Notes under the pieces: generated by a model
Told to the model about the DNA's origin: nothing
The model's database searches: none
The model's input: only the letters and a program-made list of their open reading frames with translations
Part shown: positions 15,169 through 42,984 of the stretch, piece after piece
Numbering within the stretch: the first letter of the stretch is position 1
How the letters are laid out: every line of letters begins with the position of its first letter
Made by a program: the position numbers and the translations under genes
NCBI GenBank assembly: GCA_044350705.1
Contig: JBILHA010000001.1
Location: 426,676-490,675, forward strand
DNA: 64,000 bases
Reading direction: 5' to 3'
Source: Candidatus Kapaibacterium sp.
Lineage (GTDB): Bacteria > Patescibacteriota > Patescibacteriia > UBA9934

Positions 15169-18100
15169 TTATCCTCCCAATTCGCTGCGTTTCATCATGT
15201 CGTTTTGTGGCTCTGTCACATCGCCTGCATCATCAATCACTTCTCCTTGGCCGAGATTCATGAAGATGCTTTCAACGATATCGAGCACGTATTCTCCCCA
15301 TGACGCTCCATAGATCACGCGCGCAACGGATTCTGACGCAATCCACCGGAGACGCACGATGCCGTCTCGATTCTCCAAGGCATATACTTCAGGCTGGGTT
15401 TGCAATTTCACGAGTACCGTTCCTGCCTTTGGCGGTACCAACGTTCCTTCTGGGTATGCGGCGAGCAAGCCATCAGCTACGACTTGTACATCGTCAAATG
15501 ACGAAAGATACGTGAAGAAAATTTGCTCATTGAGGAACGGGCGCTTCGTACCAAGCGTATCAAGATAGAACACCCCTCGTTCGGACTGTTCGCGCACAAT
15601 CATGCCCGGCTCCAGCTCGGCTCGTGTCGTGATCACGTCATCGCTCTTCTTTTCTACCATTTCTTCTATCGCCTGTTCCTGATCACCTTCTTCGTCTTGC
15701 TGCTCATCCTCTCCTTCACCTTCCTCTGCGCCATCTTGCACTTCCTGTTCGTCATTTTCCGTTGCAATACTCAGCGCTTCGGAAAGATCGCTCGCGAGAA
15801 CGCTGGCCAGGTCGGTCGCTTCCGCCTTAATGATGACCGCGTCTGCCTGTTCTTCAGGCGCACTCCAGCGATATTCACCGTCGTTTGGCGTATTTTGCGC
15901 AATCGTTTTCCAGAAGGTTCCCGCGTCTATGCTGTAAGAAAGCGTCACAAAACCTGGCGTTGTCGTGCTGCCTTGCGTGGTCCAGGTAATCGGAATGATT
16001 TCTCCCGCGGTGAATGATCCTCCCAGAGGCGCGGTAATGCTCATGGCATAGACTTGCGGCGTTTGCGTTCCCCCTCCGCTGTCATCACCTCCCGTTATTA
16101 CCGTTCCCGCTACAGCCGTTGCTTCATCGTGGAGCACATCAGCCGCCGTGGTCGTTTGAATGGCGTAAGTTCCGGTGGTTCCCCGCGTGGTGGGATTGGT
16201 GATCCCTGAAACCGTACACACCTGTGCTCCCGGTACCTCAGATGATCCGCCGCTTCGCGTCAGGGTGACGGTTTGTCCGCTCACACTGGTTGCAAATGCA
16301 CCATCCATGGTGGAACACGTGCCGCTTGTTGCTCCGGATACCGTGAATCCGGAAGGGAATGTTACTTTGATTTTTCCATTGTTCGCGATGCTGTTTTGCG
16401 TGGTAAACGCGATCGTGACGAGCGTGCTTACCCGGGGACGCACCAGTGACGGCGTTACCGCAGGAGAGGTCAGCGTTGCCGCAACAAGGGTATCGGCGCT
16501 CACGGCAAGTTCGCTGTCGATCATGCTGTCTGCGCTGGTAAACGTTGCCAAGGAATACGTTCCTGTCGTTCCCGCAGTGGAAGGATTTTTAATGCCGCTC
16601 ACCGTACAGGTTTCCGCGCTTCCTCCCGCCTGCAACGACCCGTCGTTTTGACGTGTAATCGTTACCCGTTGTCCGGAGATACTCGTCACAAACGTACCGT
16701 CCATCGATGAACAGGTTCCGCCCGTTGCACCCGTGATGTCGAATCCTGCAGGAAATTCTATGGCGATTTTTCCGTTTGCAGGAATGGCGTTTTGTGTGGT
16801 GAATGATGCGGTCACCGCGCCCGTTGCTCCTGCCGCAAGCGATGCTGGCTGCACGTTGGTACTTGCGAGTGCACCCGTTGCACTCGTGATGGTATCTGCC
16901 GATACCGCACTATCATTATCGATCGTCTGACTTGCTCCCGTGAGCGTTGTGATTGTGTATGTTCCGGTCGATCCTGCACTTCCCGGGTTGGTGATGCTGT
17001 TGATGGTACACGTTTGCGGACCCGGCGCCTCAGGACTTCCTGCGCCATTTCTTGTAATGGTAACCTCTTGTCCGCTCACCGACGTGGTAAACCCTCCATC
17101 CATGGATGAACAGGTTGCGCCGGATGCTCCGGAAACGTTAAATCCTGCTGGAAATGTTACGCGGACGCGGCCGTTATTAGGCAAGCTGTTGATGGTGGTA
17201 AACGTTACCGTCACGGTTCCGTTTGCGCTTGCGACAAGCGACGTAGGTTCAACGTTCGTGCTCGTGAGCGTTGACGCGACAATCGTGTCTGCGGTAACCC
17301 CTGTATCGGTGTCGATGACACTATCGGTACTCGTCAGCGTTGCCAACGAATAGGTGCCGGTCGAGCTAGCGGTAGTTGGATTTTGAATGCCGCTCACCGT
17401 ACAGGTTTCCGCGCTTCCTCCCGCCTGCAACGACCCGTCGTTTTGACGTGTAATCGTTACCCGTTGTCCGGAGATACTCGTGACAAACGTACCGTCCATC
17501 GATGAACAGGTTCCGCCTGTTGCACCGGTAACCACGAAGCCGGAAGGAAATTGTACGGCGATTTTTCCGTTTGCGGGAATGTTATTCGTTGTGGTAAACG
17601 ACAAGGTGACCACGCTTGTTGCTCCCGTATTCAATGAGGCCGGCTGCACGTTGGTGCTCGTGAGTGTTGGCGTTGCGGCGGTGATCGTATCAGCCGATAC
17701 CGTCGCGGTATCAATGAGCTGTCCCGAGCTATTTGTTGATTGTAAGGAATATGTTCCGGTCGATCCCGCGCTTCCTGGGTTGGTAATACCGTTCATGGTA
17801 CACGTTTGCGCGCCTGCCGGTTCACTTGTTCCGGCACTATTTCTTGCAATAGTAACTTCCTGTCCGGTCACCGATGTGGTAAATCCTCCATCCATGGATG
17901 AACAGGTACCGCCCGATGCGCCGGAAACGTTAAATCCTCCTGGGAATGTCACGCGGATACGGCCGTTGTTTGGAATAGCGTTCACCGTGGTAAACGTTAC
18001 GGTCACCGTATTGGTCGTTCCTGCGACGAGCGATGCCGGCTCGACGTTGGTACTCGTCATGAGTGCCGCAACAATACTGTCTGCGGCTACCGAGGGATCG

Positions 18101-18564
18101 ATGTCGATCTGGACATCAGCGGCGTTCGTCGTTTCAATGGTGTACGTTCCGGCCGAACCTGCAACCGCCGGGTTTTGAATGCCGTTGATCGTACACGTTT
18201 CGCTTCCGCTACTTTGCGAGGTTCCATCGTTTTGACGGGTGAGCGTCACCGTTTGGCCGGAAACGCTCGTCACAAACGTCCCATCCATGGTTGCGCACGT
18301 TCCGCCCGATGCGCCGGAAACGTTAAATCCGGAAGGATAGGTGACCTTAATCTTTCCATCAGCAGGAATCGCGCCCACCGTAGTAAAAGAAATGGTGTTC
18401 TGACTCGTTCTTCCTGTTTCCATGTTCATAGGCTGGACGTTGGTTGACGTCAGCCCCGCGCCCTTCACGACTGCAGCAATGCTGAGTGAGCCTGCAAGAA
18501 TGAAGGCGCTCAGGACGAGCAGAGATTTTCCGTATTTTTTCGGGGTGTGGAGTGTGCGTTTCAT
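15169..18564 (-). CDS. Large tandem-repeat cell-surface protein (about 8 repeats of ~100 aa) with an acidic C-terminal domain
   Basis: Signal peptide MKRTLHTPKKYGKSLLVLSAFILAGSLSIAAVV (the ORF track extends to 18672 but the likely start is 18564). Repeat unit: LTSTNV(E/Q)PASL..TVTFTT.N.IP.NG(K/R)I.V.FP.GF.V.GA.GGTC..MDG.F.TS.SGQ.VTI.R. Confidence 0.75.
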   Translation of the reverse strand: MKRTLHTPKKYGKSLLVLSAFILAGSLSIAAVVKGAGLTSTNVQPMNMETGRTSQNTISFTTVGAIPADGKIKVTYPSGFNVSGASGGTCATMDGTFVTSVSGQTVTLTRQNDGTSQSSGSETCTINGIQNPAVAGSAGTYTIETTNAADVQIDIDPSVAADSIVAALMTSTNVEPASLVAGTTNTVTVTFTTVNAIPNNGRIRVTFPGGFNVSGASGGTCSSMDGGFTTSVTGQEVTIARNSAGTSEPAGAQTCTMNGITNPGSAGSTGTYSLQSTNSSGQLIDTATVSADTITAATPTLTSTNVQPASLNTGATSVVTLSFTTTNNIPANGKIAVQFPSGFVVTGATGGTCSSMDGTFVTSISGQRVTITRQNDGSLQAGGSAETCTVSGIQNPTTASSTGTYSLATLTSTDSVIDTDTGVTADTIVASTLTSTNVEPTSLVASANGTVTVTFTTINSLPNNGRVRVTFPAGFNVSGASGATCSSMDGGFTTSVSGQEVTITRNGAGSPEAPGPQTCTINSITNPGSAGSTGTYTITTLTGASQTIDNDSAVSADTITSATGALASTNVQPASLAAGATGAVTASFTTQNAIPANGKIAIEFPAGFDITGATGGTCSSMDGTFVTSISGQRVTITRQNDGSLQAGGSAETCTVSGIKNPSTAGTTGTYSLATFTSADSMIDSELAVSADTLVAATLTSPAVTPSLVRPRVSTLVTIAFTTQNSIANNGKIKVTFPSGFTVSGATSGTCSTMDGAFATSVSGQTVTLTRSGGSSEVPGAQVCTVSGITNPTTRGTTGTYAIQTTTAADVLHDEATAVAGTVITGGDDSGGGTQTPQVYAMSITAPLGGSFTAGEIIPITWTTQGSTTTPGFVTLSYSIDAGTFWKTIAQNTPNDGEYRWSAPEEQADAVIIKAEATDLASVLASDLSEALSIATENDEQEVQDGAEEGEGEDEQQDEEGDQEQAIEEMVEKKSDDVITTRAELEPGMIVREQSERGVFYLDTLGTKRPFLNEQIFFTYLSSFDDVQVVADGLLAAYPEGTLVPPKAGTVLVKLQTQPEVYALENRDGIVRLRWIASESVARVIYGASWGEYVLDIVESIFMNLGQGEVIDDAGDVTEPQNDMMKRSELGG
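15900..18400. repeat. Intragenic tandem repeats of ~300 bp, including a ~150-bp near-identical pair at about 16590-16740 and 17385-17535
   Basis: Direct reading shows ...accgtacaggtttccgcgcttcctcccgcctgcaacgacccgtcgttttgacgtgtaatcgttacccgttgtccggagatactcgt... at both loci. Confidence 0.7.
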
Positions 18565-18641
18565 AAAGTTTTTTCTACCGGAAAAGCATACCATTTTTAT
18601 TGCCTCGCTTTTTTCTCCACTGTGAACAGTCCTCCCCTCTT

Positions 18642-19160
18642 TCATTGCCATACCCTGAGCTCTCTTCGGCATTCGCGGTACTCCGGGATGGTTTGCGCCA
18701 CGAGCGCCCAGAACCTTGGTGAGTGATTGAATTCCTTAAGATGGCAGAGCTCGTGAACGATGAGGTATTCGGCAAGGTGCGGGGGGAGAAACAGAATGCG
18801 GTAGTTGAAATTGAGATTGCCACGCTTTGAGCAACTGCCCCAGCGGGTTTGTTGATTGCGAACCGAGATCTTTCCGTAGGAGAATCCGTAGTGCTGATTT
18901 AGCTCGGCTACTCGTTGCGTCGTGAAATGAAGTGAGGAGTGTTTGACGTCTTGGTAAGACGGATATGAACGGACGGGACGGATATGTGGAAGCTTCGCTC
19001 TCGCCTTCTCAATCCATTCCTTTTTCTCCTCCACAAACTTTTCTGCCCATTTCATAGGTACACGAAAAGGGACGGTCACCATGCAGGTGCCGTCGCCTTT
19101 GATGCGAATGCGCAGATACTTTGCATTTCGCTTTTTCGTGAATACGATCCCTTCCTCCAT
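18642..19160 (-). CDS. YgjP-like (DUF45) M48-family zinc metallohydrolase
   Basis: HELCHL zinc-binding motif in IVHELCHLKEFNHSPRFWALV. 172 aa, typical of the family. Confidence 0.75.
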   Translation of the reverse strand: MEEGIVFTKKRNAKYLRIRIKGDGTCMVTVPFRVPMKWAEKFVEEKKEWIEKARAKLPHIRPVRSYPSYQDVKHSSLHFTTQRVAELNQHYGFSYGKISVRNQQTRWGSCSKRGNLNFNYRILFLPPHLAEYLIVHELCHLKEFNHSPRFWALVAQTIPEYRECRRELRVWQ

Positions 19161-19166
19161 GTCCTT

Positions 19167-19679
19167 TTAAGCTCTTGCCTGGTCATTGAGAATCACCAAA
19201 TCTACCCAGTCTTTCATAAGGGCGAGATTTCTTTCTCCCGTTTCTCTTTTGGTAATCCAAAGAATCCCGTCAGGTTCCGGCATTCCCCATGTGCGCGCCT
19301 TTTCCTCTCTATACACCCTTTCGATTTCCCGATCTCCGGGAAACATGGGGTATTGCACGAGCATCACCCACTTCTCCCACGCTTCTTTCTCTGCAAACTC
19401 GGAGGGAATCTCTTCGTATCCTTTTATTTCTCCGCCCTGTATCGCTACATCTTTTTTCCGCAGTTCCTTCATTATTTGATCCGCGAAATATGACTTCCCT
19501 GCATTCGGCAAACCATACACTATGAACGTTACCAGGTTCTTTTCTCTCAGCTTTTCTTCAGTATTTTTTGCTACCCGGCTCACGCCCTCTCCAAAATCTA
19601 CGATATTTGCATCACGCTCTCGTTTTTCTCTTCGCTCTCCCACTGATTCCATACGCTTCATTTTCAAAAAATATCTCAA
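19167..19679 (-). CDS. Small P-loop NTPase/kinase-like protein
   Basis: Walker A GLPNAGKSYF. 170 aa. No further family assignment possible by eye. Confidence 0.5.
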   Translation of the reverse strand: MRYFLKMKRMESVGERREKRERDANIVDFGEGVSRVAKNTEEKLREKNLVTFIVYGLPNAGKSYFADQIMKELRKKDVAIQGGEIKGYEEIPSEFAEKEAWEKWVMLVQYPMFPGDREIERVYREEKARTWGMPEPDGILWITKRETGERNLALMKDWVDLVILNDQARA

Positions 19680-19688
19680 GCTCCATCA

Positions 19689-20528
19689 TCATACAATTTC
19701 CCCCTTCTTCTTTCCAAACAAAAATGCTTCATCGCCAACTTTTTTTCTTGGACGAACGAAGAGCACTACACCATCATCTTCCACACCAACCTCCTCTCCC
19801 CCATCTTTTCCTATACATTGGCCGCGCGTAACCTCTTCAAAGTCAGCGAAGATTTTTTCTGGGTTGAAGGTATTTGTTTTTGTGTGATAGAGCGATTCCA
19901 TGTGTATCCATTCTTTGGGAGATTGCACGGGGGCATTTCCTGAAATATGGCCGCGCACTATGAGGAATGCATTCATCGCTTCTTTTGCACGCGCTACGCT
20001 TTCCGGATCGTTGATGTACCCTGCTTCAAAGCAAATTCCCACGCCGCCCTGCATGTTGATGTACCCGTCAGAACCACCCGGTTCGAGCGCATCAAATCCG
20101 CTCACCATGCGCTTTGCGGGGAACGTTGCCGCATATGCAAATGCGTGTGGCTCGCATATACAGAATGGTTCGCTTTCGGGGGAGTTGCTTGCGTGAATGT
20201 CGAGGAGTGCATCGACGCCTTCAAGGTCGGAAAGGATTTCTCGGGAGCGCGCGTACTCGTATGTACGCTTCACCTCATCGGAAACCGCATCTTCGGAACA
20301 GAACAAGCGATTGAGATTATATTCGACAAAGCGAACCCCTTCTTCGACCGCCTTTGGATTTCCCACAATAATACGCACCTCGCCTTTTTCGATAGTCTGC
20401 AAGTTCATTTCTTCTATTGCGCGTATACCGGCAAGCTCGTTTCCGTGTACCCCCACGAGAATTGCACTGACGTTTCCTAATTGTGTTCCTTTGAGAATTT
20501 TTGTGGGGGGAGTTTGATTCATAGACAA
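19689..20528 (-). CDS. Succinylglutamate desuccinylase/aspartoacylase (AstE/AspA) family zinc hydrolase
   Basis: VGVHGNELAG zinc-ligand motif. 279 aa. Confidence 0.75.
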   Translation of the reverse strand: MSMNQTPPTKILKGTQLGNVSAILVGVHGNELAGIRAIEEMNLQTIEKGEVRIIVGNPKAVEEGVRFVEYNLNRLFCSEDAVSDEVKRTYEYARSREILSDLEGVDALLDIHASNSPESEPFCICEPHAFAYAATFPAKRMVSGFDALEPGGSDGYINMQGGVGICFEAGYINDPESVARAKEAMNAFLIVRGHISGNAPVQSPKEWIHMESLYHTKTNTFNPEKIFADFEEVTRGQCIGKDGGEEVGVEDDGVVLFVRPRKKVGDEAFLFGKKKGEIV

Positions 20529-20714
20529 CGCCCCATTTTTTCAGATTTTCTCTCAATTGTAAAACCTCAATTTGTTTACCTTTACTTCTGTTCAAGATCT
20601 TTCAGTACCACCCCTTCTCCGGTCTTCCACTCCGTCCAGCCATTTGCGGAACGTGCGAGGACAATTGCGGCGGCGGCACTCGGAGAGGAGAAGAGGTGGT
20701 CTTGGGTGAAGATG

Positions 20715-21341
20715 CTAGGTCTCGATGAAATTTATCTCATCTTCGTATATGACGATCTTCTCAATTCCATCATTCCCAATTTTAACAATCTCATTTTTTA
20801 ATATTTTTCCATTCAAAAGATATCTACACCGTGCATTATTAACTTCATTTATTTCTTCGTGAGGATTTGATACTAAAAATATCCCTCTTGTAAGCTTTTT
20901 TGAGGCCTCCAGAAGCTTCCCAACTTCATCTTCTAAAAGATTTGTATTTTTATGAAAAACAATAATTAAACCATATGCATTTGTTTGTACTTTTTTCTTG
21001 TTTAAAATTTCTTTCAAAAATTCACTGAAAGTATTTTTATCTTTTTCATGAAATTCTTTAACGTCAAAAACAATACCTCTCATTCCATTAGAATCTCCGC
21101 ACGCAAAGATTACATCCCCTCTTTCTTCCTCAGGAAAGAAGAGTAAATGAGAGCATCCCTCAATGTCGTCAAAAAGTCTGCAGGCAAATAAGGAAAAATA
21201 TGCCTCTCTTATTTTTAAATATTTATGATTATTTAAAAAAATATCTTTATGCTTCTCTTTTGAATAAATCTCATGAAATATATTAAAAACACTGGATTGC
21301 GGAATGAGCCTTTTAACAGGAATGTCTCTATCTTGATTCAT
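20715..21341 (-). CDS. Hypothetical protein (208 aa) translationally coupled to the nuclease-helicase gene in the AT-rich island
   Basis: Its start overlaps the stop of the upstream helicase ORF by 14 nt. Very AT-rich codon usage. No recognisable motif. Confidence 0.5.
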
Positions 21342-23202
21342 GATTCATTGTTTTGATTTTTATTCTTTTTCTCACATACTCCTTTACGTTTTCATCCACA
21401 AAATACACATAACACCCCTTCATTCCACGTGACATGAGGACTTTGTAAATATTTCTCACAAGCTGGTTCATACGCTCGGGATTGTTTTTTAATCCCTTCT
21501 TTCCATTCGCATCTTTGTACTCATTCCATTTTGTAAAATACTCCATTTTTTCAGCATCAAACTGGAGGTCTTTCCCCACAATAACTCCCACATAATCGAA
21601 CTCAAGACCTTGCGATGTATGCACACATCCTGCTTGGTCAATACCGTCTCCATCAATTGCCCACGTCGTACCGATGCGACGAGAATTCCACGGCATACTG
21701 AAATCGTACTCTGGAATAACAATATCGTGATGATTTGCATCGGGATTTCCCGCATTTGCGGCCGTCCATTTCCATGCATATCCTGCAAGAACACGCGCAC
21801 TTTTACCTGCCGTTTGCTTCTTTTTTATCTCTGCAACTAATTCTTTCGGATCATCAAAGATGCGGAAATCAAATTTTTCCCTATCCCATCCGTCGTAGTT
21901 TGCAGTCTCGCGAATATGAAGTGTGTTATCAAGCCAATTCAAATATCCTTGAGCACCAGCGCAACGAAATTGCGCCTGTAACTCCACTTCAAATACTTCA
22001 GCACCCTCTTGTTTTACTACTCGCTTTATCTCCTCCACCGATCCCACATCATCCGGACGAATTACCTGATTATCATCAACGAAAAATATACTCACCTTTG
22101 CCGCGCGAACTATATCTTCCACCTGATTTTCTCCCTGATACATATAGGCTCCTGCTTTCTTCAAGCGATGAGCTTCATCTACGATCACTACATCAAATGC
22201 ATTCGCTTCTGTATCCACAAAACTTCCTGAACCTCTAAAAAGTGACTGGATGCGGTTCTTTGCATGCTCTTGTGCAAGTTTGTGCATGAGAACTGTTCTA
22301 AATGAAGCATTCGGCGCTACAAAAACTGCATTTTTTTCTTCTTTTAATAATCCCCCGAGAAGATTTACCGAAACGACCGATTTTCCCGTTCCCGGTCCGC
22401 CCTTAATAAGTACTACGGACTTTGATACATGCTTTAGCGCAACATGCTTTGCGGTCTCATATGCAATCTTTTGCTCATCCAAAAGCACAAACTCTTGATT
22501 TCCTTCAAGCATTCCTGAAACATGGTCAATAAGTTTTTTACTTGGACGAATACGACCATATTCAACTTCGTATAGAATATCGTCTCCGTTTCCCTTTCCT
22601 ACATACTTTTTCAAAAACTTCTCCAACTTCTCCTGATCATCCTTAAGATAGAGCGGTGCAAGATCTGTATGCTCTTTATATATCTCTGCTTCTAATGGTT
22701 CCGGATTTTGTCTTATGTAATTGTGAAGATAGGCGCACGCATGTGCATTAAGTTGCTTTGTTTCAATATTTTCATTGTAGTCTTCGAGATACATCTGATA
22801 TGAGCTCGCCTGATATGAAGGGTGTGTTGTTTCGCGTACAGCACCTCCGAGAAATGTTTTTACCAAACCATCCTTTTCGGTCGCCTCAGCTTTATCCCAT
22901 TGTTTAAGCTCAACAATGACGAAGTGTCTATTTCCTTCGTCATCATGTCCTGCTATAAAAAAATCGATGCGATTTGAAGTCGCAGGAATGACGTATTCAA
23001 TTAAAATGCCACATGTAGGATTAAGATCTGCACGCCGGACAATACGCTCCATATACTGCAAAGAGTTTGTCATTGCACGTTTTTCCGAAGGTGAAACCCT
23101 TCGCCCCAATCCATCTTCGAATGCCTTTTCTACAACATCGGCAATAATATTTCTATCAACGTATTCACGAAATTCTTCAAGCGTACTGCGATATAAAAAC
23201 AT
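21328..23202 (-). CDS. PD-(D/E)xK nuclease domain fused to a DUF2075-type SF1 helicase/ATPase (Nhi/Schlafen-like architecture)
   Basis: N-terminus GILIEYVIP...RIDFFIAGHDDEGNRHFVIVELKQW gives an E...D...ExK motif set. Walker A GGPGTGKS, Walker B VVIVDEAHRL, SF1 motif VI-like CVHTSQGLEFDYVGVIVG, and DUF2075-like AGYAWKW. Confidence 0.8.
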   Translation of the reverse strand: MFLYRSTLEEFREYVDRNIIADVVEKAFEDGLGRRVSPSEKRAMTNSLQYMERIVRRADLNPTCGILIEYVIPATSNRIDFFIAGHDDEGNRHFVIVELKQWDKAEATEKDGLVKTFLGGAVRETTHPSYQASSYQMYLEDYNENIETKQLNAHACAYLHNYIRQNPEPLEAEIYKEHTDLAPLYLKDDQEKLEKFLKKYVGKGNGDDILYEVEYGRIRPSKKLIDHVSGMLEGNQEFVLLDEQKIAYETAKHVALKHVSKSVVLIKGGPGTGKSVVSVNLLGGLLKEEKNAVFVAPNASFRTVLMHKLAQEHAKNRIQSLFRGSGSFVDTEANAFDVVIVDEAHRLKKAGAYMYQGENQVEDIVRAAKVSIFFVDDNQVIRPDDVGSVEEIKRVVKQEGAEVFEVELQAQFRCAGAQGYLNWLDNTLHIRETANYDGWDREKFDFRIFDDPKELVAEIKKKQTAGKSARVLAGYAWKWTAANAGNPDANHHDIVIPEYDFSMPWNSRRIGTTWAIDGDGIDQAGCVHTSQGLEFDYVGVIVGKDLQFDAEKMEYFTKWNEYKDANGKKGLKNNPERMNQLVRNIYKVLMSRGMKGCYVYFVDENVKEYVRKRIKIKTMNHESR

Positions 23203-23205
23203 ATT

Positions 23206-23571
23206 CTAAAGATCAGTATATTTCGTATGCACTCCTTTCGCTTTTTCTACAGGGTATTTCTCTTCATTCTTCCGCATCTTTTCTTCTAGTGCCGTAAAGA
23301 CATCAATATCAAAATCATGCGCCATAAGTAAAATCCAATAAAGCGTATCTGCGAGTTCCTCCCCCACCGCCTTCTTTTTATCCTCACGTTCAAGATACAT
23401 TTTCATTTCTTCTGCATTCTTCCACTGAAAATGTTCCATGACTTCAGTAGCTTCAAGTACTAAAGAGACCGCGAGGTCTTTTGGGTTATGAAATTGTTTC
23501 CAGTCGCGAGCATTGCGGAAGGCGATAATGCGCTGAGTCAAAGAATTAATATCCATCATATCTAGCTGCAA
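23206..23571 (-). CDS. MazG-like nucleoside-triphosphate pyrophosphohydrolase (all-alpha NTP-PPase)
   Basis: 121 aa. EELADTLYWILLMAHDFDIDV and LVLEATEVMEHFQW are typical MazG-domain helices. Its stop is 3 nt from the helicase start. Confidence 0.75.
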   Translation of the reverse strand: MQLDMMDINSLTQRIIAFRNARDWKQFHNPKDLAVSLVLEATEVMEHFQWKNAEEMKMYLEREDKKKAVGEELADTLYWILLMAHDFDIDVFTALEEKMRKNEEKYPVEKAKGVHTKYTDL

Positions 23572-23821
23572 TGGCGATACTTGTATTTTTTATAGCTTCC
23601 ATTGCAGTATTTTTTTTACCTATCTTTCAAAAAAACTTATAAGTTTTTCTCATTTATTTTGAGAATACCTTTCAGTCATATACTCGTCAATCGAGGTGGG
23701 CAATTAAAAATACCCTCGATTCGTACCATCAATATTTTTCAAAAAGGCTGTGAGACCCTTCCTTACGTCAGGGTCTTTCTTTACATCAGAGTCTTTTTTC
23801 TGCACATGATTGGAGCATACA

Positions 23822-23856
23822 AAAAACTCCAGGATTATTCCCGGAGTTTTTTTTAA
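23822..23856. terminator. Bidirectional rho-independent terminator (ctccagg-attatt-cccggag with A-run and T-run)
   Basis: Lies downstream of the HEPN-like gene on the minus strand. Separates it from the mazG-helicase operon promoter region. Confidence 0.55.
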
Positions 23857-23918
23857 CTCGTCTTTATTTTTAACTTTCTATATTTCTCTACTAACCTTCT
23901 TTGATCTTCGGCAGATTT

Positions 23919-24380
23919 TTATTTTGAAATCCCTGCATCAATCGCTATCTTTTTTCTTAAATTATTTAATACAATTCTCAATTCTTTCATTTTTTCCAAC
24001 GTAAGAATCATACTAAATTCAACCTCAAGATCTCTATTCTTCTGTGTTTTAAATTTTACCAACTGCATCATGCCATCTCCATCTATTTCTGCCATAATTC
24101 CATGTGCAAATGCATGTCTTAATTGCTTAAACTCCTCTGGAATTTTTATTTTTGGAAATTTGTCATTGAATTCTTCTATTATTTCTTCGAGCCGAATGAT
24201 AGAAAAGGCTTTTGGATAAACTTTATATACTTTTCCTTTCGCATAAGGGGGCTTGGGAAATTTCGATTCTTCCCCATCTTTTTTCGCAATTGCACACCTC
24301 ATAATGAATTCTATCGCGGCGATATCCCTTACTACCTCCCCCAGGCATTCAAAAAATTCTGAGATATCTTTTTTTTGCAT
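23919..24380 (-). CDS. Hypothetical protein with a HEPN-like Rx4H motif (LRHAFAHG)
   Basis: 153 aa. AT-rich. Immediately downstream of cysS. R-x4-H within a predicted helical region. Confidence 0.45.
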   Translation of the reverse strand: MQKKDISEFFECLGEVVRDIAAIEFIMRCAIAKKDGEESKFPKPPYAKGKVYKVYPKAFSIIRLEEIIEEFNDKFPKIKIPEEFKQLRHAFAHGIMAEIDGDGMMQLVKFKTQKNRDLEVEFSMILTLEKMKELRIVLNNLRKKIAIDAGISK

Positions 24381-24389
24381 ATATCTCCC

Positions 24390-25856
24390 TCAGGATGACA
24401 TGCGACTCTCCCTCACTCTCTGCCCCTTGGCAGTGTCTTCGACGGCGTAGCCTAATTCTGCCAACTGATCGCGGAGTTCGTCGGACTTTTGCCACTCTTT
24501 GGCGGCGCGGGCTTTTGCGCGGTCGTCGAGGAGCTTTTGCGCTTCATCGGTGATTTTTATAGGGCGAGCAACGACGTCTTCGAGGGCAAGACCGAGCACT
24601 TCATCCATTTTAAGCACGGTTGCGGATTTCACACCCGGAGCAAGGGTATCGTTATGCACGACTCCCCAAAAAATCGCGAGGGCACCCGGGGTGTCGAGGT
24701 CGTCGCGTATACGATCCATGAATGCGGTCATGCTTATTTCGTCGGCGTGCAGGTCGCCCGGCTTTGCCCAGTCACGGACTTCGTCGATGAGGTTGTTGAT
24801 CGCGTTTTGTGCGGCTTGCGCGGCATCGAAGGTGAAATTGAGATGCGTGCGGTAGTGTGCTCCCAAAAGGAAGAGGCGGAATGCGCGTGCGCTAATTCCC
24901 TTTTCGGCAAGTTCGTCGAGCGCGTACGTATTGCCAAGCGACTTACTCATTTTTCCGCCATCGACAAGCAAGAATTCGTTATGCATCCAAACGTTCGCTT
25001 CAAGGCATCCGCGTGCGGCATCGGTTTGTGCGAGTTCGTTTTCGTGGTGTACCGCAATGTGGTCAATGCCTCCCGTATGAATATCAAATGGAACGCCAAG
25101 GTACTTTTCCCCCATCGCAGAACATTCAATATGCCATCCGGGGAAGCCCTTGCCCCAAGGTGATTCCCATTCCATGTGACGCTTTGGCTGAGGCGATCCT
25201 GACGAAAGGAAGGATCCTTCGGTCGACTTTTTATCTCCCTCAGGATGACAAGGCTCGCTAAATTTCCAGAGTGCGAAATCTGCAGGGTTCTTTTTCTCTT
25301 CGTTTACGCCGATGCGTGCGCCTTCTTCTTTTTCAGACAGTGGCTGACGAGAAAGTTGCCCGTAGGAAGGAAGCTTGGACGTATCAAAATAGACGCCATC
25401 AGAAATGACGTATGCGAACCCGTTCTTCTCGATATCTTGAATCATGGTGATTTGCTCGGCGATGTGGTCGGTTGCGCGCGGCATGACATGCGGAAGCTGG
25501 ATGTTGAGCTTACCCAAGTCTTGCACGAAGAGATCGGTGTACTTTTTGGCGATATCCCACGCGGTCTCTCCGGTTTTCTTTGCGGCGACTTCCATTTTGT
25601 CATCGCCCTCCGATGCATCGTCAGTAAGGTGGCCGACGTCGGTGATGTTCATGACGTGGGTTACTTTGTATCCCTCAACTTCAAACATGCGGCGCAGGGT
25701 GTCGGCAAAAACGTAACTTCGGAGGTTACCAATGGAGGCGCGACCGTACACCGTAGGGCCACACACGTACATGCCGACCGTGTTAGGTTTTGCGGGAGTA
25801 AATGGACCCTGGGAGCGCGTAAGCGTGTTGTAGAGGGAAATCATAGCTTCCCGCAT
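24390..25856 (-). CDS. cysS: Cysteine--tRNA ligase
   Basis: HIGH-type motif (CGPTVYGRASIGN) and KMSKS (KMSKSLGN). 488 aa. Confidence 0.95.
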   Translation of the reverse strand: MREAMISLYNTLTRSQGPFTPAKPNTVGMYVCGPTVYGRASIGNLRSYVFADTLRRMFEVEGYKVTHVMNITDVGHLTDDASEGDDKMEVAAKKTGETAWDIAKKYTDLFVQDLGKLNIQLPHVMPRATDHIAEQITMIQDIEKNGFAYVISDGVYFDTSKLPSYGQLSRQPLSEKEEGARIGVNEEKKNPADFALWKFSEPCHPEGDKKSTEGSFLSSGSPQPKRHMEWESPWGKGFPGWHIECSAMGEKYLGVPFDIHTGGIDHIAVHHENELAQTDAARGCLEANVWMHNEFLLVDGGKMSKSLGNTYALDELAEKGISARAFRLFLLGAHYRTHLNFTFDAAQAAQNAINNLIDEVRDWAKPGDLHADEISMTAFMDRIRDDLDTPGALAIFWGVVHNDTLAPGVKSATVLKMDEVLGLALEDVVARPIKITDEAQKLLDDRAKARAAKEWQKSDELRDQLAELGYAVEDTAKGQRVRESRMSS

Positions 25857-36876: not shown

Positions 36877-39800
36877 ATGAAAAATAAAACATCGTATAAA
36901 AACGACGTTTTTTTTCATCAGATATCTTCTCCACACTTGCACCAACGTCCGGCGCAAGGCCGGACAAGAAGTGTGACGTTATATCCGACGAATATGTTCG
37001 TCTTTTTATACAGAAGAAAGTATACCCAATCTCTCTTTTTTTCAAAAAAATGCCCTTTTTTTCATGCTACACTTTCTCTACGCTTTATTATCTTTTCTGT
37101 GCAAAAACAAACCTTTTTATCAGCGTTCTTTCTTGGTTTCTTCTCCGCCTTGTGCACGCTCCTCTTCCCTGCCACTACGCTTGCTGCTCCCGACTACCTT
37201 ACCGATGGCTCGGAACTTCTTTTCCCCTATTCATTCCTCGAACCTGAAACTTCCTGGAGAATAGATACAAGTACCACGGGTAGTGCAACGATTACGAGCA
37301 TCTCTCCCGACTTTGTTGGCCCAAGTGATACCGGCGTTTTAAGTACCGAGGGCTGGACAGAAGGTATTTCCGAAAGTATTGATGATGGCTTTTTCCCCGT
37401 TCCTCTTCCTGAGAGTATCTTTTTTAATGGATCTTCTACCGACACCGTATGGTTCGGCTCGAATAGTTATATTTTTTTTGATGGAGGGTCTACTGAATAC
37501 GAGAGCCTTACGTTTGATAATCCTGCTCGCGCTGGTATTTCTCTTTGCGCAAACGATCATTCCTATCAGCGACTGCTCTATCGTACGGAGGTGGGAACTA
37601 ACAATGTTCGCGTTCGCTATGAAGGTACCGCAAGTACCATTGGCGATATTGGCCTTCCTGACATTGTTTATGAAGCAGTGTTTTATGAAGGCGAATCCTA
37701 TTTCGACCTTCATGTTGGACATCATGCAGGCTGTAATGGGAGCGTCCTCGATCCCGAGATTCGCGGACGAACAAGTGAGGACTACATCCTCACCGCTTCA
37801 ACGGGTACATGGTCTTACAGCGATGCTCCTCTTGATTTTTCCTATCAATGGCTTCGCTATAACAATGACACGAGTACATGGGATGAAATTTCTGGAGCTA
37901 CAAGCCAGCAATACCTTCTTACACCTGATGATGCCGGAGTAGCCATTACCGTTGAAGTTGTCTCTTTCGATCCTGAGTCTGGGCCCTCTGGAAGAACTGC
38001 TGAACCAACTGCTCCCATTACCGAAGTACACCTCATTTCTACCTGTGAAGAACTTCAGGCATCTGACGATGGTCTTCATGGGCTCCCAAGCGACGTGTAT
38101 CGACTCGCCAATAGCATTGACTGTACCGGAGTTGAAATGGACCCTTTGTGGCCCTCTGGATTTTCTGGAGTTTTTGATGGAGACGAGTACACTATTTCTG
38201 GTATCTCTCTTTCCGGCGGAGATAATACCGCGCTTTTCTCCAACTCCGACGGCGCTGAATTTTTTGACCTGACACTTTCTGGCTCGGTAGCCAGTACCGG
38301 CCACTATACCGGTGCGTTAGTTGGGGAGGCGTACAATACTTCGTTTTCAAATATTACGAGTACCGTAGAAATTTATGCGGGCGCAAACCATGTTGGCGGT
38401 ATTGCCGGCTTTGCACATTACGATACTGATGGAACCTATACACTTACTAATCTCTCCGTAGAAGCAGACATCTATCTTCCACTCCATGGATCGTCGATCG
38501 GTGGTATTTTTGGCTATCTTGGTGAAGGCATTGATGGAACCGAGATTTCTGTCACGCTCGATAACGCGCAGTTTGTCGGATCAATATCTGGCGACAATGA
38601 AGGCGGGTATCAGCTCACCGAAGTTGGTGGACTCATTGGTTATGTACAAATCTATAAAGATAACGACGGCGATCATCATTTCACGATTCAAAACAGTTCA
38701 ACTTCTGGTTCTGGCATTTCTGCTTACTTTTCTGCCGGTGGTCTTGTGGGTCGGCTGGTGAGCGAAAACTACACCTCGTCATTTACTCGTGAACGTTCAC
38801 CTTCAACGATTTCCATTCTCTCCTCTTCATCGAGCATGCCTATTCAGGTTAGTTCGAGTCGTGGCGGTGGACTCATAGGTTATGTGCACATGTACAACGA
38901 GGGCGTTTCTGATCAAGCCATTTCTTTTGATGATACAAGTGCAACTGGAAATGTAACCGGGGGAATTTTCGCTGGAGGACTCCTTGGAACCATTGATATC
39001 AACATCCAAAATAGTGGAGCTTCAAATACACTTGATATCACAAACTCATTTGCTACAGGCGCGGTTACGGGATCGGGATTCATTGGAGGATTTCTCGGAG
39101 GATCGTACGATGAGCACAATGACATCTTCGTTGCAGGCACTGAACGCAGCGTTACATTCACCAATACGTATGCAACCGGTGACGTTGTAGGATCTCTCGA
39201 CAGTGACGATGTCTACTTCGTGGGCGGCTTTGCCGGATCCCTCTACTGCACTTCAAGCGATATCCGTGAAGGGCAAAAGGTTTGCGAAATACATGAGTCG
39301 TATGCCTCCGGTGACGTTACGGGAAACCTTCTTGGAGGAAGCTGGAATGTTGGTGGATTTTTTGGAGCGCTTTCTGACTCTATCACTCTTCGTGATTCCT
39401 ATGCACAAGGCGATATTTCAGGATATCAGCACGTGGGAGGATTTGCTGGCGTTGTACAGGAAGCTTACGACGGTATGTCTATCGAGCGTGTATATAGCTC
39501 GGGAATGGTCGCGTCGTCTGAGTTAAATTCTTATGCACTCGGCGGACTCTTTGGATATACCGACAATACCTTTATCACTCTCCGCAATGCATTTACTACC
39601 TCACCCGTAGTCGACGCCCTTACCGGCGCAACACAACTTGGTATGTGCGTGGGAAGCATGGGCACGGAAATATTTATCGAAAATACTGAATACGTTGCAG
39701 GAAGCTACTCGGGATCGGGAGGGGGAGATTTGGACGGATGTACCTCCGTTGATGATGCGTCGTACTTTTATCAAAGCGATTATTCCTTCTTGAGTTCCTG

Positions 39801-42800
39801 GGATTTTTCTATAGTTTGGCGTGAAAATCCAGATCAACTCCCTACTTTGCGCGCAAGTTCAGAAGAAATGGGAGATATCACTCCTCCAACCCTCTCACTC
39901 ATTCGTCCCTTGAGCGATACCATTGTCGTTGACTGGGATCCGTCGGTAGATTGGGGCGATTCTGCGGCGTGCTCATACTCGTATGACGATGAAGTCTATA
40001 CGCTCATCGACTGTTCTCTTGAAGGCTCTAACATTCCTTCCCCGGAAACCTCCGGTGACTACACGCTCTACATTCTCGGTGCTGATGACGCAGACAACGA
40101 GGCATACGAGGAAGTGACCTTTACGTTCGCCGATCTTGAACGCCCGCATCTTCTTGGCGCAACAGGAACGGGTTTTGCCTATACCTCTTCAGAAATTGCT
40201 TTTGACTGGCAAGATTTTACCGATGCTGCAACGTCTGTAGGCTTTGAAACAGATGATGATGACCGGATGTCGGAAGCGATTCGCCTCCCCTTTCCGTTTA
40301 CCTTCTACGGGAACGTGTACGAATCGCTGTACGCTTCTACGAATGGATTCGTCACCTTTACCGGCGATCAAAGCGCTACCTACGATCCACCTGCACAGCC
40401 AGATTTTGGCATAGAAAATGAAACACATAACGTTATCGCGCTCAACTGGACAGACTTGTACTTTGGACAAGACAGTCAACTTGCGTACGAAGTCTTTGGT
40501 ACCGCGCCCAATCGCGTGTTCGTTCTTGAATATCGCGACTTTGAAGAATGCTGCGATCAGGATATCAACCGCGTCACCATGCAACTTCATTTGCACGAAT
40601 CTACACATGTTATAGAAATGTACATTGATGAATCCGATGTCTCACCTGACCACCTTATGGTGCAAGGCGTTATCGATAGCCAAGGCACACAGGCGGTTCT
40701 CACTCCCGAGCGTAACTCGGTACTCTCCACAGCTCTTACACATGATGCTGTTCGCTTTACTCCAATTGCTGTCCCTAATTACGTTCGCTCTGGCGATGTT
40801 CTTCTTGGGCGATGGGATCCGAGTGATTTTCCTCGAGAAATTTATTCGGTTCAGTTCGTTGTTTCCGAATTTTATGGTGAAGAAATGATTACTGCGGCAG
40901 GGTTTAACGACGAAACTGGTTACTATGAAGCTGAACTGAGTGAAGACCTTCTCGCGCAAGATCAAGATGATGCACTCTTTTTTATACGAGTTACTGATAT
41001 TTCCGATACCGTCTCTGAAATTTGGAGTGAAACCTATAATATCGATACGTACATTCCCGATGACTTTTCTGTTTCGGACATTGAGGTTCTTGGTGGCACT
41101 GTCAATGAAGAAGAATGGAATGCAACAAATACGAGCATTGAGATTACCGTAACCATTCCTGAAGATAACAGTCTTATTGGCGGCAATCTCTATATCTTCT
41201 CTGATAACGACGAAGATGATCGCTGGATTGCGGTTGAAGATCTTTCCGCTGAAGATCTTGGTACCGATAAAGTAGTTACTCTCACCGCGGAAGATCTTTA
41301 TGACATTCCCCTTCTTGCGGAATGGGAATATTTTGAGCTCTATGCAGTACTTCAAGACAATGCGGGAAATTATCTTGAAAGCGATGACGAACGCTTCCGA
41401 GTGTACATGACGGAAGATGACATCTTCCCCACTCTTTCTCTCATTGGAGGAGATGATGTGTATATAACCCTTGGAGAGACTTACGAAGAACTCGGCGTGT
41501 ACGCAGAAGACGCTGTGGATGGTAATATTTCTCATGATGTACTTATTACAGGCTCGGCAGATACCTCTCGCGTTGCAAATTATCCCCTCAGTTATTTCGT
41601 TGAGAATTCACGTGGAATAATTTCCGAAATTGTCACTCGAGATATCATCGTTCTTCCTGAAGATTCTTCCGATTTCTTTATTGGATATAACGATGAAACG
41701 CGTATTCATGTTTCTCAAACCTCAACTTCTTCCGTGCAATTTACCGATCTTTGGAACGAAGGCGATCCTTCGTTTATCACCCCTGGTATTACGATGATCA
41801 CTGCACAGTCAGCTATCGGTGTACTTGAAATTGTCATGCCAAGCGACATGACGGTTACCCCAAGTGGTGATTTCGATGGCTCCATGATGCTTCCCCGTGC
41901 ACTTACCGAAGAAGATCTCGCCCTTCCTTCGGGCGCACCGCTTCATGCCGCATTTGAAATTGGACTCTCGGAAAGCTCTCTCGTCTTTGATCGAGGTATT
42001 CGCATCCTCTTCCCCGGACAGGGCAATCGCCTTGCGGGAACGCAACATCTTGGAGTCTTTACCCCTATTTCCACTGTTTGCGATGCTGATACCCAAGACT
42101 TTGCAGACACTCTTCCTGAAGAGGGTGATTGCGCCATAACCGTTGGTGAGGACTTGGTTGTTTGGACAAAACATTTCAGTGCTTTTTCGGCATACGGCGA
42201 GGGAGAAAGCGATGACACTCCCGCGCCACGCTCAAGTAATGCTCGTCGATATTCGTGGCGTCAATCTCCTCAAAAGCCTACGGGCGGATGCCAAGATCCT
42301 CGTGCTGAAAATTTCGATCCCACCGCACGTCATGGAGGAAAGAAGCTCTGCACCTACGCATCCCCCAGTCCCGCGCCTATTATCCTACCCCCAACATCCA
42401 ATGCCTCACTCCCCTCACTCCCCTCACTCCCTACACCCACCACCCCCTGCCCCTACACCCGAACCCTTGTTCTCGGCATGGAAGGTGAGGACGTTCGTGC
42501 ACTGCAAGTGTTCCTCAATGCTCACGGGTTCCCTGTCGCGGCAATCGGTGCCGGATCACCTGGTTTAGAAACATTGTATTTTGGTCCCGCAACGCGTGCC
42601 GCACTTATTCGCTACCAAGCAAGTAACGGCATTGCTCTTTCGCAAGGCGCTGGCACGTTCGGCCCTCGCACGACCGCACTCGTTTGCGCGGGAACGACGA
42701 CATCTCCGACTCCCGCTTCTCCTTCGCCGGTATCATCATCATTCTTTACGCGCGATTTAACGCTTGGCTCTATGGGAGAAGATGTTGCCATTCTCCAGCG

Positions 42801-42984
42801 CACGCTCATTGCGAACGACTACGTTATTCCTGCAGGTGCTACCGCGTATTTCGGCCCACAAACCGCGCAGGCACTTGCTCAATTCCAGGAAGATCATGGC
42901 GTTTCGCCATCACTTGGCTTCTTCGGTGCACTGACTCGAGCATTTTTTGTCAATTCAATCCTTATTCATGCACTCATCCCTTAG
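36877..42984 (+). CDS. Giant secreted cell-surface protein with GLUG-motif repeats and two C-terminal peptidoglycan-binding (PG_binding_1-like) domains
   Basis: 2035 aa. Signal peptide LSAFFLGFFSALCTLLFPATTLA-AP (the in-frame GTG at 37099 is a plausible alternative start). At least 10 VGG(L/I/F)xG(Y/F) GLUG-like repeats. C-terminal LVLGMEGEDVRALQVFLNAHGF...YFGPATRAALIRYQ and LTLGSMGEDVAILQRTLIANDY...YFGPQTAQALAQFQ. Confidence 0.8.
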   Translation: MKNKTSYKNDVFFHQISSPHLHQRPAQGRTRSVTLYPTNMFVFLYRRKYTQSLFFSKKCPFFHATLSLRFIIFSVQKQTFLSAFFLGFFSALCTLLFPATTLAAPDYLTDGSELLFPYSFLEPETSWRIDTSTTGSATITSISPDFVGPSDTGVLSTEGWTEGISESIDDGFFPVPLPESIFFNGSSTDTVWFGSNSYIFFDGGSTEYESLTFDNPARAGISLCANDHSYQRLLYRTEVGTNNVRVRYEGTASTIGDIGLPDIVYEAVFYEGESYFDLHVGHHAGCNGSVLDPEIRGRTSEDYILTASTGTWSYSDAPLDFSYQWLRYNNDTSTWDEISGATSQQYLLTPDDAGVAITVEVVSFDPESGPSGRTAEPTAPITEVHLISTCEELQASDDGLHGLPSDVYRLANSIDCTGVEMDPLWPSGFSGVFDGDEYTISGISLSGGDNTALFSNSDGAEFFDLTLSGSVASTGHYTGALVGEAYNTSFSNITSTVEIYAGANHVGGIAGFAHYDTDGTYTLTNLSVEADIYLPLHGSSIGGIFGYLGEGIDGTEISVTLDNAQFVGSISGDNEGGYQLTEVGGLIGYVQIYKDNDGDHHFTIQNSSTSGSGISAYFSAGGLVGRLVSENYTSSFTRERSPSTISILSSSSSMPIQVSSSRGGGLIGYVHMYNEGVSDQAISFDDTSATGNVTGGIFAGGLLGTIDINIQNSGASNTLDITNSFATGAVTGSGFIGGFLGGSYDEHNDIFVAGTERSVTFTNTYATGDVVGSLDSDDVYFVGGFAGSLYCTSSDIREGQKVCEIHESYASGDVTGNLLGGSWNVGGFFGALSDSITLRDSYAQGDISGYQHVGGFAGVVQEAYDGMSIERVYSSGMVASSELNSYALGGLFGYTDNTFITLRNAFTTSPVVDALTGATQLGMCVGSMGTEIFIENTEYVAGSYSGSGGGDLDGCTSVDDASYFYQSDYSFLSSWDFSIVWRENPDQLPTLRASSEEMGDITPPTLSLIRPLSDTIVVDWDPSVDWGDSAACSYSYDDEVYTLIDCSLEGSNIPSPETSGDYTLYILGADDADNEAYEEVTFTFADLERPHLLGATGTGFAYTSSEIAFDWQDFTDAATSVGFETDDDDRMSEAIRLPFPFTFYGNVYESLYASTNGFVTFTGDQSATYDPPAQPDFGIENETHNVIALNWTDLYFGQDSQLAYEVFGTAPNRVFVLEYRDFEECCDQDINRVTMQLHLHESTHVIEMYIDESDVSPDHLMVQGVIDSQGTQAVLTPERNSVLSTALTHDAVRFTPIAVPNYVRSGDVLLGRWDPSDFPREIYSVQFVVSEFYGEEMITAAGFNDETGYYEAELSEDLLAQDQDDALFFIRVTDISDTVSEIWSETYNIDTYIPDDFSVSDIEVLGGTVNEEEWNATNTSIEITVTIPEDNSLIGGNLYIFSDNDEDDRWIAVEDLSAEDLGTDKVVTLTAEDLYDIPLLAEWEYFELYAVLQDNAGNYLESDDERFRVYMTEDDIFPTLSLIGGDDVYITLGETYEELGVYAEDAVDGNISHDVLITGSADTSRVANYPLSYFVENSRGIISEIVTRDIIVLPEDSSDFFIGYNDETRIHVSQTSTSSVQFTDLWNEGDPSFITPGITMITAQSAIGVLEIVMPSDMTVTPSGDFDGSMMLPRALTEEDLALPSGAPLHAAFEIGLSESSLVFDRGIRILFPGQGNRLAGTQHLGVFTPISTVCDADTQDFADTLPEEGDCAITVGEDLVVWTKHFSAFSAYGEGESDDTPAPRSSNARRYSWRQSPQKPTGGCQDPRAENFDPTARHGGKKLCTYASPSPAPIILPPTSNASLPSLPSLPTPTTPCPYTRTLVLGMEGEDVRALQVFLNAHGFPVAAIGAGSPGLETLYFGPATRAALIRYQASNGIALSQGAGTFGPRTTALVCAGTTTSPTPASPSPVSSSFFTRDLTLGSMGEDVAILQRTLIANDYVIPAGATAYFGPQTAQALAQFQEDHGVSPSLGFFGALTRAFFVNSILIHALIP

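Follow-up and report, generated by a model that had tools for sequence, protein, structure and literature searches.

The block of genes considered here lies in a 64,000-nucleotide stretch of a Candidatus Kapaibacterium sp. (Patescibacteriota) contig, referred to below as the window, between cysS, which encodes cysteinyl-tRNA synthetase, and a gene of the AstE/AspA family (Table 1). The genomes of Patescibacteria are tiny, and few of their defences have been characterised. The block holds four open reading frames (ORFs), encoding a HEPN-like protein of 153 amino acids (aa), a MazG-like pyrophosphohydrolase, a 624-aa nuclease-helicase and a 208-aa protein, all on the minus strand, as is every gene from 15 to 28 kb. 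An initial annotation had listed these four ORFs in the same terms, correctly, and had read the AT-rich block as a horizontally acquired defence islet inserted between the AstE/AspA gene and cysS. The islet itself would be ordinary of its kind; its main content is probably a new two-gene variant of Nhi-like nuclease-helicase immunity, formed by the MazG-like gene and the nuclease-helicase gene. Taken as a whole, the locus is likely to be a hotspot that holds an exchanged, two-layer island with a conserved two-gene module, for which we propose a defence mechanism resembling that of Nhi.

Base composition sets the block apart from its surroundings. GC content over 20600-24390 is 0.379, compared with 0.509 ± 0.025 (minimum 0.458) in all other stretches of equal length (z = -5.3), and 400-bp intervals give values of 0.30-0.45 across ~20.7-24.4 kb and of 0.50-0.57 in the flanks. 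Measured in 1-kb steps, this stretch has the lowest GC content of the window. GC content at third codon positions (GC3) is 0.25 for the 208-aa gene, 0.35 for the 624-aa gene, 0.41 for the MazG-like gene and 0.30 for the HEPN-like gene, and 36 reference ORFs, at 0.52 ± 0.07, lie above all four. The sharp drop in GC described in the initial annotation is thus borne out both by sliding-window composition and by GC3.

The site was compared with that in four relatives (L166, a Logan contig, and L003, L004 and L002) and in an independent assembly (L001). The arrangement in L001 is identical to that in the window, and the arrangement is therefore not an assembly artefact. By sequence comparison, the CysS protein of the window is nearest to Candidatus Uhrbacteria within Patescibacteria, and CysS identity ranges from 37% to 91% across 80 loci from Patescibacteria and other groups. 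The closest relative found, L166, is 91% identical in the C-terminal half of CysS, 75% in AstE and 79% in the 153-aa protein. Its cysS gene is followed by a DUF3800 gene, a relic cysS 3′ end and the 153-aa gene, then by a restriction-modification (RM) block, PDC-S14 and AstE. The RM block is on the opposite strand and comprises a type II methyltransferase (PADLOC 2e-98) and, at 1338 aa, a type IIG restriction-methyltransferase (3e-53); two uncharacterised genes and then PDC-S14 (PADLOC 7e-80) precede AstE. At the nucleotide level L166 is homologous to the window as far as 23916, where the 153-aa gene stops, and again from 20712, three bases beyond the 208-aa stop codon; between these breakpoints L166 holds 7.1 kb of other defence genes. 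Because homology breaks at these two positions, the bounds of the exchanged cassette can be placed at 20713-23915. Among the more distant relatives, L003 (CysS 79%) carries the Shedu gene SduA (2e-15) directly after cysS, L004 (CysS 76%) carries an NYN gene after cysS, and L002 (CysS 83%) carries an NYN gene, an 86-aa MazG-like remnant and YgjP, without the helicase gene and without AstE. The window and its four relatives therefore have five different contents after cysS, some of them recognised defence systems, and for this reason we read the site downstream of cysS as a defence-gene hotspot whose content is horizontally exchanged. The genes of the block are not found together at this site in L166, L003, L004 or L002, and deviant composition coincides with variable presence between conserved flanks. 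Composition and the differing defence cargo thus support the proposal of a horizontally acquired defence islet, with two amendments: a foreign cassette is present, but the block as a whole is a mosaic and not one insertion; and the AstE gene, shared with L166, is absent from the locus in L002, so that across the wider lineage this flank is not constant.

We picture the island in two layers. The first would be the small HEPN-like gene, encoding a predicted RNase, which lies directly against cysS and is closed by a strong terminator; shared with L166 and lying outside the exchanged unit, it is an older resident of the hotspot. The second would be the 3.2-kb cassette, in which a leader with palindromic sites precedes an operon running from the MazG-like gene through the nuclease-helicase gene to the 208-aa gene. 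The terminator, first placed at 23822-23856, is real and strong at 23818-23855. Its 17-nt arms are 88% complementary, and the hairpin folds on the minus strand with a free energy of -24 kcal/mol (z = -6.7) and is followed there by a U run; on the plus strand it folds too (z = -4.1). It would close the cysS/HEPN-like transcript. Two inverted repeats had been pointed out in what were taken to be AT-rich promoter regions. One of them, CTGCAATGG/CCATTGCAG, with 9-bp arms at 23566-23574 and 23599-23607 just upstream of the MazG-like start, folds beyond chance, the segment 23555-23615 that holds it giving z = -3.7, better than 200 of 200 shuffles. The other, AATCGAGG/CCTCGATT at 23689-23696 and 23714-23721, is at chance level (z = -1.6, with 12 of 200 shuffles as good). 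Sigma-70-like hexamers number 11 against 12.8 expected, an absence of enrichment that leaves the promoter regions without this support. Also in the leader, at 23631-23648, is a perfect palindrome of 18 nt, AAAAACTTATAAGTTTTT, which the initial annotation had overlooked.

Table 1. Features of the cysS-AstE locus, with positions numbered along the window
Feature	Position	Strand	Description
cysS (cysteinyl-tRNA synthetase)	24390-25856	minus	Pfam tRNA-synt_1e 2.7e-92 and CysS_C; conserved flank
HEPN-like 153-aa gene	23919-24380	minus	starts 9 nt after the cysS stop
Spacer, 347 bp	23572-23918		between the HEPN-like gene and the MazG-like ORF
Bidirectional intrinsic terminator	23818-23855	both	folding, U run
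Leader or promoter region, non-coding	23560-23817	minus	palindrome and inverted repeat; presumed promoter role
MazG-like gene	ORF 23206-23571, from TTG 23571; probable ATG 23559	minus	Pfam MazG-like; 117 aa from the probable ATG
624-aa nuclease-helicase gene	21328-23202	minus	PD-(D/E)xK, residues ~1-250; DUF2075/Schlafen-group-3 superfamily 1 (SF1) helicase, residues ~260-603
208-aa gene	20715-21341	minus	PD-(D/E)xK-like motif; 14-nt overlap with the 624-aa gene
Exchanged cassette	20713-23915	minus	3203 bp, GC 0.379; intergenic control region and three-gene operon
AstE/AspA-family gene	19689-20528	minus	Pfam AstE_AspA_cat 4.4e-15
P-loop 170-aa gene	19167-19679	minus	context gene, without family assignment
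YgjP-like metallopeptidase gene	18642-19160	minus	Pfam YgjP-like 4.6e-46; context gene

The N-terminal PD-(D/E)xK domain of the 624-aa protein retains its catalytic residues, and the SF1 helicase that follows has Walker A and Walker B motifs, the two features that characterise Nhi-type proteins. Pfam assigns residues 261-603, the helicase, to SLFN-g3_helicase (formerly DUF2075, PF09848) at 3e-96. Across 175 aligned homologues, E69, D80 and E98-L-K100-Q-W are conserved in at least 95% of the sequences, as are the Walker A motif GGPGTGKS (268-275), DEAH (342-345) and later helicase motifs. The family is large, with >8000 database matches at E <= 1e-10, and many of its homologues in Patescibacteria are 57-80% identical over their full length. 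Searches of the PDB with the 624-aa protein and with its N-terminal profile returned nothing significant. The PADLOC model for Nhi matches only the helicase core (residues 238-413, 55 bits, E 1.4e-15), leaving the nuclease domain unmatched, and the best PADLOC matches are to PDC-S41 (9.6e-17, in three stretches) and AbiO (1.1e-15). Matches to these three models are partial, at 55-58 bits, and membership in any of them was ruled out; from its domain order the protein is best described as an Nhi relative by architecture and not as a member of the Nhi family. Of the 120 closest DUF2075 homologues, about 10 (P0044, P0053, P0060, P0063, P0065, P0081, P0088, P0095, P0102 and P0111) carry a C-terminal Peptidase_S24 domain of the LexA/UmuD type, with the MazG-like gene still upstream; loci with such fusions include L088 (4581-6917) and L187 (5001-7277). 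The fusions point to a variable accessory slot at the C-terminal or downstream position, and suggest RecA-dependent or DNA-damage gating in some lineages.

The MazG-like protein matches PF12643 at 1.2e-17 (64.4 bits, against a cut-off of 27). Solved structures homologous to it include an archaeal pyrophosphatase (PDB 4qgp, 2.3e-18) and DCTPP1 (6sqw, 2.1e-17), and the alignment with the mouse and human forms of DCTPP1 takes in almost the entire protein; it also matches the PHROG 3301 pyrophosphatase (6.7e-19). Both acidic motifs are kept, E40-A-T-E43 and E72-L-A-D75 in the numbering of the 121-aa ORF, and align with EVAELLE and EEIAD of 4qgp. The protein can thus be assigned to the all-alpha NTP pyrophosphohydrolases of the DCTPP1/RS21-C6 type. 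No PADLOC model matched it. The second motif is missing from the remnant in L002 (3939-4199, directly before YgjP), where a 35-aa internal deletion removes the EELAD metal-binding helix; in L002 the MazG-like gene seems to have degenerated once the nuclease-helicase had been lost.

The two genes occur together well beyond this locus. We scored 88 loci in all, among them 80 metagenomic loci and four annotated records. A MazG-like gene lies near the DUF2075 gene in 70 of the 80 loci that could be assessed, a count that is not fully independent, some of the 88 loci being near-duplicates. The distance is <=1.3 kb in 69 of the 88, of which 54 are within <=150 bp, and 3.3 kb in one; 10 loci have no MazG-like gene despite adequate flanks, and in 8 the contig is too short to judge. 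Across the 70 loci the MazG-like gene precedes the DUF2075 gene on the same strand in 57; in the others it lies downstream, on the same strand in 6 and on the opposite strand in 7. Since adjacency persists through rearrangement, the two genes are probably functionally linked. When all neighbouring ORFs were clustered, the MazG-like gene was the only recurrent neighbour of DUF2075, and no recurrent third gene was found beside the pair. The initial annotation had noted both a MazG-like and a nuclease-helicase gene, as two separate entries, and had missed the link between them; the pair is listed neither in PADLOC-DB v2.0.0 nor in the literature searched. It spans Bacteria and Archaea, with Bacillota, Halobacteria and Patescibacteria among its hosts. 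On a Priestia plasmid it is annotated as 'nucleotide pyrophosphohydrolase' and 'DUF2075 domain-containing protein', with a restriction endonuclease and genes of a type I RM system as neighbours, and on a plasmid of the archaeon Halalkalicoccus it is annotated likewise, next to RM genes. The family occurs on 99 plasmid records and on 4 of 50,697 phage records, and 2.9 million viral contigs yielded no close relatives and ~2 distant ones. Because it is rare in viral collections compared with these 99 plasmid records, the family appears to be borne by hosts rather than by phages.

Other genes accompany the pair sporadically. A Fic-domain gene lies between its two members in L083 (4951-5985) and L084, and an unclassified 264-aa family (cluster c11) takes that place in several near-identical loci, including L118-L120 and L148. 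YgjP was rejected as a component of the system; it lies downstream of the pair only in L082, L085 and L087, the closest Patescibacteria loci. Genes with HTH_3 and Peptidase_M78 (ImmA/IrrE-like) domains are found near the pair in L082 (9257-10067) and L187 (759-1976), and LexA and a Y-family polymerase are found near it in L082. These neighbours may reflect DNA-damage-responsive regulation.

The island encodes two further proteins. In the 153-aa protein, R88-x4-H93 is invariant among 17 homologues, which show weak matches to HEPN_RiboL-PSP (9 of 17, best 3.8e-5), pEK499_p136 (6 of 17) and Las1 (6 of 17); the protein of the window itself has no Pfam match. It is reasonable, if not proven, to regard it as HEPN-like and a predicted RNase. 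No MNT antitoxin gene lies beside it in the window, where its neighbours are cysS and the terminator, or in the L166 and L167 contexts. The 208-aa protein belongs to a rare family in which all of 20 sequences share E46, D76, D93, K95 and E96, an E...D...(D/E)xK motif that makes it a putative PD-(D/E)xK protein. A PDB search with the family profile gave nothing significant, and profile-profile comparison with the N-terminal domain of DUF2075 proteins (probability 0.5%) indicated no relationship. A PADLOC match to prokaryotic Argonaute (pAgo) was rejected, being present in 1 of the 20 family members. Among the DUF2075 neighbourhoods examined, the 208-aa gene is next to DUF2075 in this locus only.

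From these sequence features we infer a function in defence, with substrates, and any cooperation among the three cassette proteins, along the following lines. The nuclease-helicase would act like Nhi and degrade invading DNA. By analogy with nucleotide-depletion defences, the pyrophosphohydrolase would convert dCTP, modified dCTP or another (deoxy)nucleoside triphosphate, (d)NTP, into the monophosphate, and this would either starve phage replication or keep protective modified bases from being incorporated, so that the nuclease could attack the phage DNA. Alternatively, the pyrophosphohydrolase may serve as a regulator or neutraliser of its partner. In those relatives that have a C-terminal LexA/UmuD-type S24 domain, the system could be gated by DNA damage or RecA filaments. 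We speculate, while holding the idea to be somewhat doubtful, that the MazG-like protein and the nuclease-helicase constitute a distinct, widespread two-component immune system, in Bacteria and Archaea alike, in which the hydrolysis of a (d)NTP, canonical or modified by the phage, is mechanistically linked to a breakdown of incoming DNA that the helicase drives, with gating in some lineages through self-cleavage of the C-terminal S24 domain under stimulation by RecA.

Several observations weigh against a recently acquired defence system. In the window the cassette has neither an integrase nor a tRNA nor flanking repeats beside it: a tRNA scan found none in the island, the nearest tRNAs being at 47 kb and 53 kb of the window; an Rfam scan of the island returned no family; Pfam identified no integrase domains in the flanking ORFs; and the direct repeats that the initial annotation had suggested seeking at the edges of the insert are lacking, as are attachment (att) sites, around the cassette in the window. 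The remnant at the same locus in L002 is ~75% identical, judged by eye, over the parts retained, and this could mean that the pair is old in the lineage. The 208-aa protein has no partner relationship to DUF2075 anywhere else examined. The PADLOC matches of the 624-aa protein are weak for its length, and the MazG-like protein lacks such a match altogether, defence roles of MazG being so far predicted (a 2026 paper counts MazG among domains predicted, not validated, in defence). Finally, the LexA, Y-family polymerase and S24 associations fit a role in DNA damage equally well.

In a rival reading the pair performs housekeeping or SOS repair and nucleotide sanitation, the MazG-like enzyme cleaning damaged dNTPs and the nuclease-helicase processing damaged DNA, so that vertically inherited genes only look foreign. 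The high full-length identity in many Patescibacteria and the MazG remnant at the same cysS...YgjP locus in L002 speak for vertical descent, and LexA and the Y-family polymerase beside the pair in L082, LexA in L169 and the S24 fusions in ~10 of 120 homologues speak for a link to DNA damage. DCTPP1 relatives are described as house-cleaning enzymes, and the homology to DCTPP1 would suit a sanitation role. However, at this locus the pair is absent from L166, L003 and L004, where recognised defence systems sit instead, and it is plasmid-borne beside RM genes in Bacillota, Archaea and Bacteroidota. The GC3 of the pair is well under that of the genome, and in several loci on higher-GC contigs its GC content is lower than that of the rest of the contig. 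On this evidence we consider a repair function unlikely. We give somewhat less weight again to a toxin-antitoxin-like addiction cassette that confers no phage protection, with the nuclease-helicase as toxin, the MazG-like protein as its neutraliser and the HEPN-like protein as an orphan second toxin. Such a cassette would account for the tight coupling of two genes in variable order, for decay of the MazG partner where the helicase gene is gone (L002) and for the HigB and other toxin-antitoxin genes that adjoin the pair in L187; moreover, HEPN domains are frequent toxin-antitoxin toxins. It would not account for retention of the catalytic ExxE...ExxD residues, which are superfluous for an antitoxin that acts purely by binding, and the HEPN-like gene has no MNT-type antitoxin next to it. 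Many abortive-infection defences are themselves toxin-antitoxin-like, so that this explanation overlaps with an immune function and does not exclude it.

Least probable, and in our view very improbable, is that the block is left over from a prophage or an integrative element, or is a chimera of assembly or binning, without current function. An AT-rich block with its own terminator and leader could be such a relic, and one 'Microcystis phage' record holds the pair. Against this, none of the four ORFs is disrupted and all retain the conserved catalytic residues; the surroundings contain no integrase gene, no structural gene and no tRNA gene; viral collections hardly contain the family; the arrangement recurs identically in L001, and contigs of 0.2-1 Mb on which the protein occurs are on record. 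The junctions, too, coincide with the ends of genes (9-nt gap, 14-nt overlap of genes). An exchanged island with a conserved defence module thus remains the likely explanation.

Two repeats touch the cysS end of the site. A 19-nt exact direct repeat on the minus strand, TGTCATCCTGAGGGAGATA, occurs at 24382-24400 and 25232-25250 and is the sole non-trivial repeat found, with ~0.008 such expected by chance in 64 kb. The copy at 24382-24400 spans the last codons and stop of cysS and the ribosome-binding site of the HEPN-like gene; that at 25232-25250 is internal to cysS, where a lineage-specific insertion of ~20 aa begins. The cysS 3′ ends of relatives differ from that of the window. In L166, two ~70-nt copies of the cysS 3′ end, at ~575-647 and ~1585-1655, bracket the DUF3800 gene, and we interpret them as the trace of an insertion or recombination at the site. 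The duplicated 3′ end is found in L166 only, and no integrase is present at the DUF3800 insertion there. Elsewhere in the window, the region of the P-loop gene (19000-19800) has a GC content of 0.43-0.48 and the strongest negative GC skew nearby, to -0.49; the gene is absent from L002 and may be another accessory gene. A 1167-aa ORF at 15169-18672 on the minus strand, with repeated ~100-aa units rich in T, S and G and an acidic tail, looks like a Patescibacterium surface protein. On the plus strand, a 2035-aa ORF at 36877-42981 has a GC3 of 0.41, the next-lowest of the window after the island genes.

Set beside known systems, the locus itself resembles the defence-island hotspots described elsewhere, such as those of E. 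coli, where mobile islands with defence systems have been mapped in like manner: here as there, conserved flanks (cysS and AstE) enclose differing defence cargo of low GC content, and breakpoints fall at gene ends. It differs from other hotspots in lying in an ultra-small Patescibacteria genome and in having no integrase or att repeats in the window. With five cargos in five related genomes and base-precise exchange boundaries, the cysS 3′ end is a clean example of such a site.

Depletion of dNTPs is an established anti-phage strategy. Among the enzymes that act alone in this way are dCTP deaminase and dGTPase, and the MazG-like protein here differs from them in travelling with a nuclease-helicase. 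Survey literature counts dCTP deaminase among defence systems. PDC-S41 and AbiO both appear to be DUF2075-type ATPases like the 624-aa protein, though matches to them are only partial. The nearest functional parallel is with Nhi and Nhi-like. Nhi (SERP2475 of Staphylococcus epidermidis) needs both its nuclease and its helicase activity and limits the accumulation of phage DNA. Nhi and Nhi-like have both been shown experimentally to block phages and are described as single-gene systems, and Nhi-like has no sequence identity with Nhi (Millman et al. 2022). The 624-aa protein shares their architecture, an N-terminal PD-(D/E)xK domain followed by an SF1 helicase that overlaps DUF2075/PF09848. It has no C-terminal Glyas_Bleomycin-R domain and its host is a Patescibacterium; above all, in contrast to both systems, its family has a conserved MazG-like partner, which argues that it does not stand alone. 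That a large sister family to Nhi is nearly always paired with a DCTPP1-like gene, in three arrangements and in Bacteria as well as Archaea, suggests that the two genes function as a unit. Should the pair operate in the proposed way, manipulation of the nucleotide pool and degradation of nucleic acids would be linked in one system, and Schlafen-type helicases and MazG domains would gain a prokaryotic context. On the eukaryotic side, the closest known systems include the Schlafen group III proteins (SLFN11/13), to which the helicase is related, and DCTPP1/RS21-C6, to which the MazG-like protein is homologous by sequence over nearly its full length with the acidic metal-binding motifs kept; if our proposal holds, the locus would represent a prokaryotic pairing of activities that animals hold in DCTPP1 and Schlafen group III proteins.

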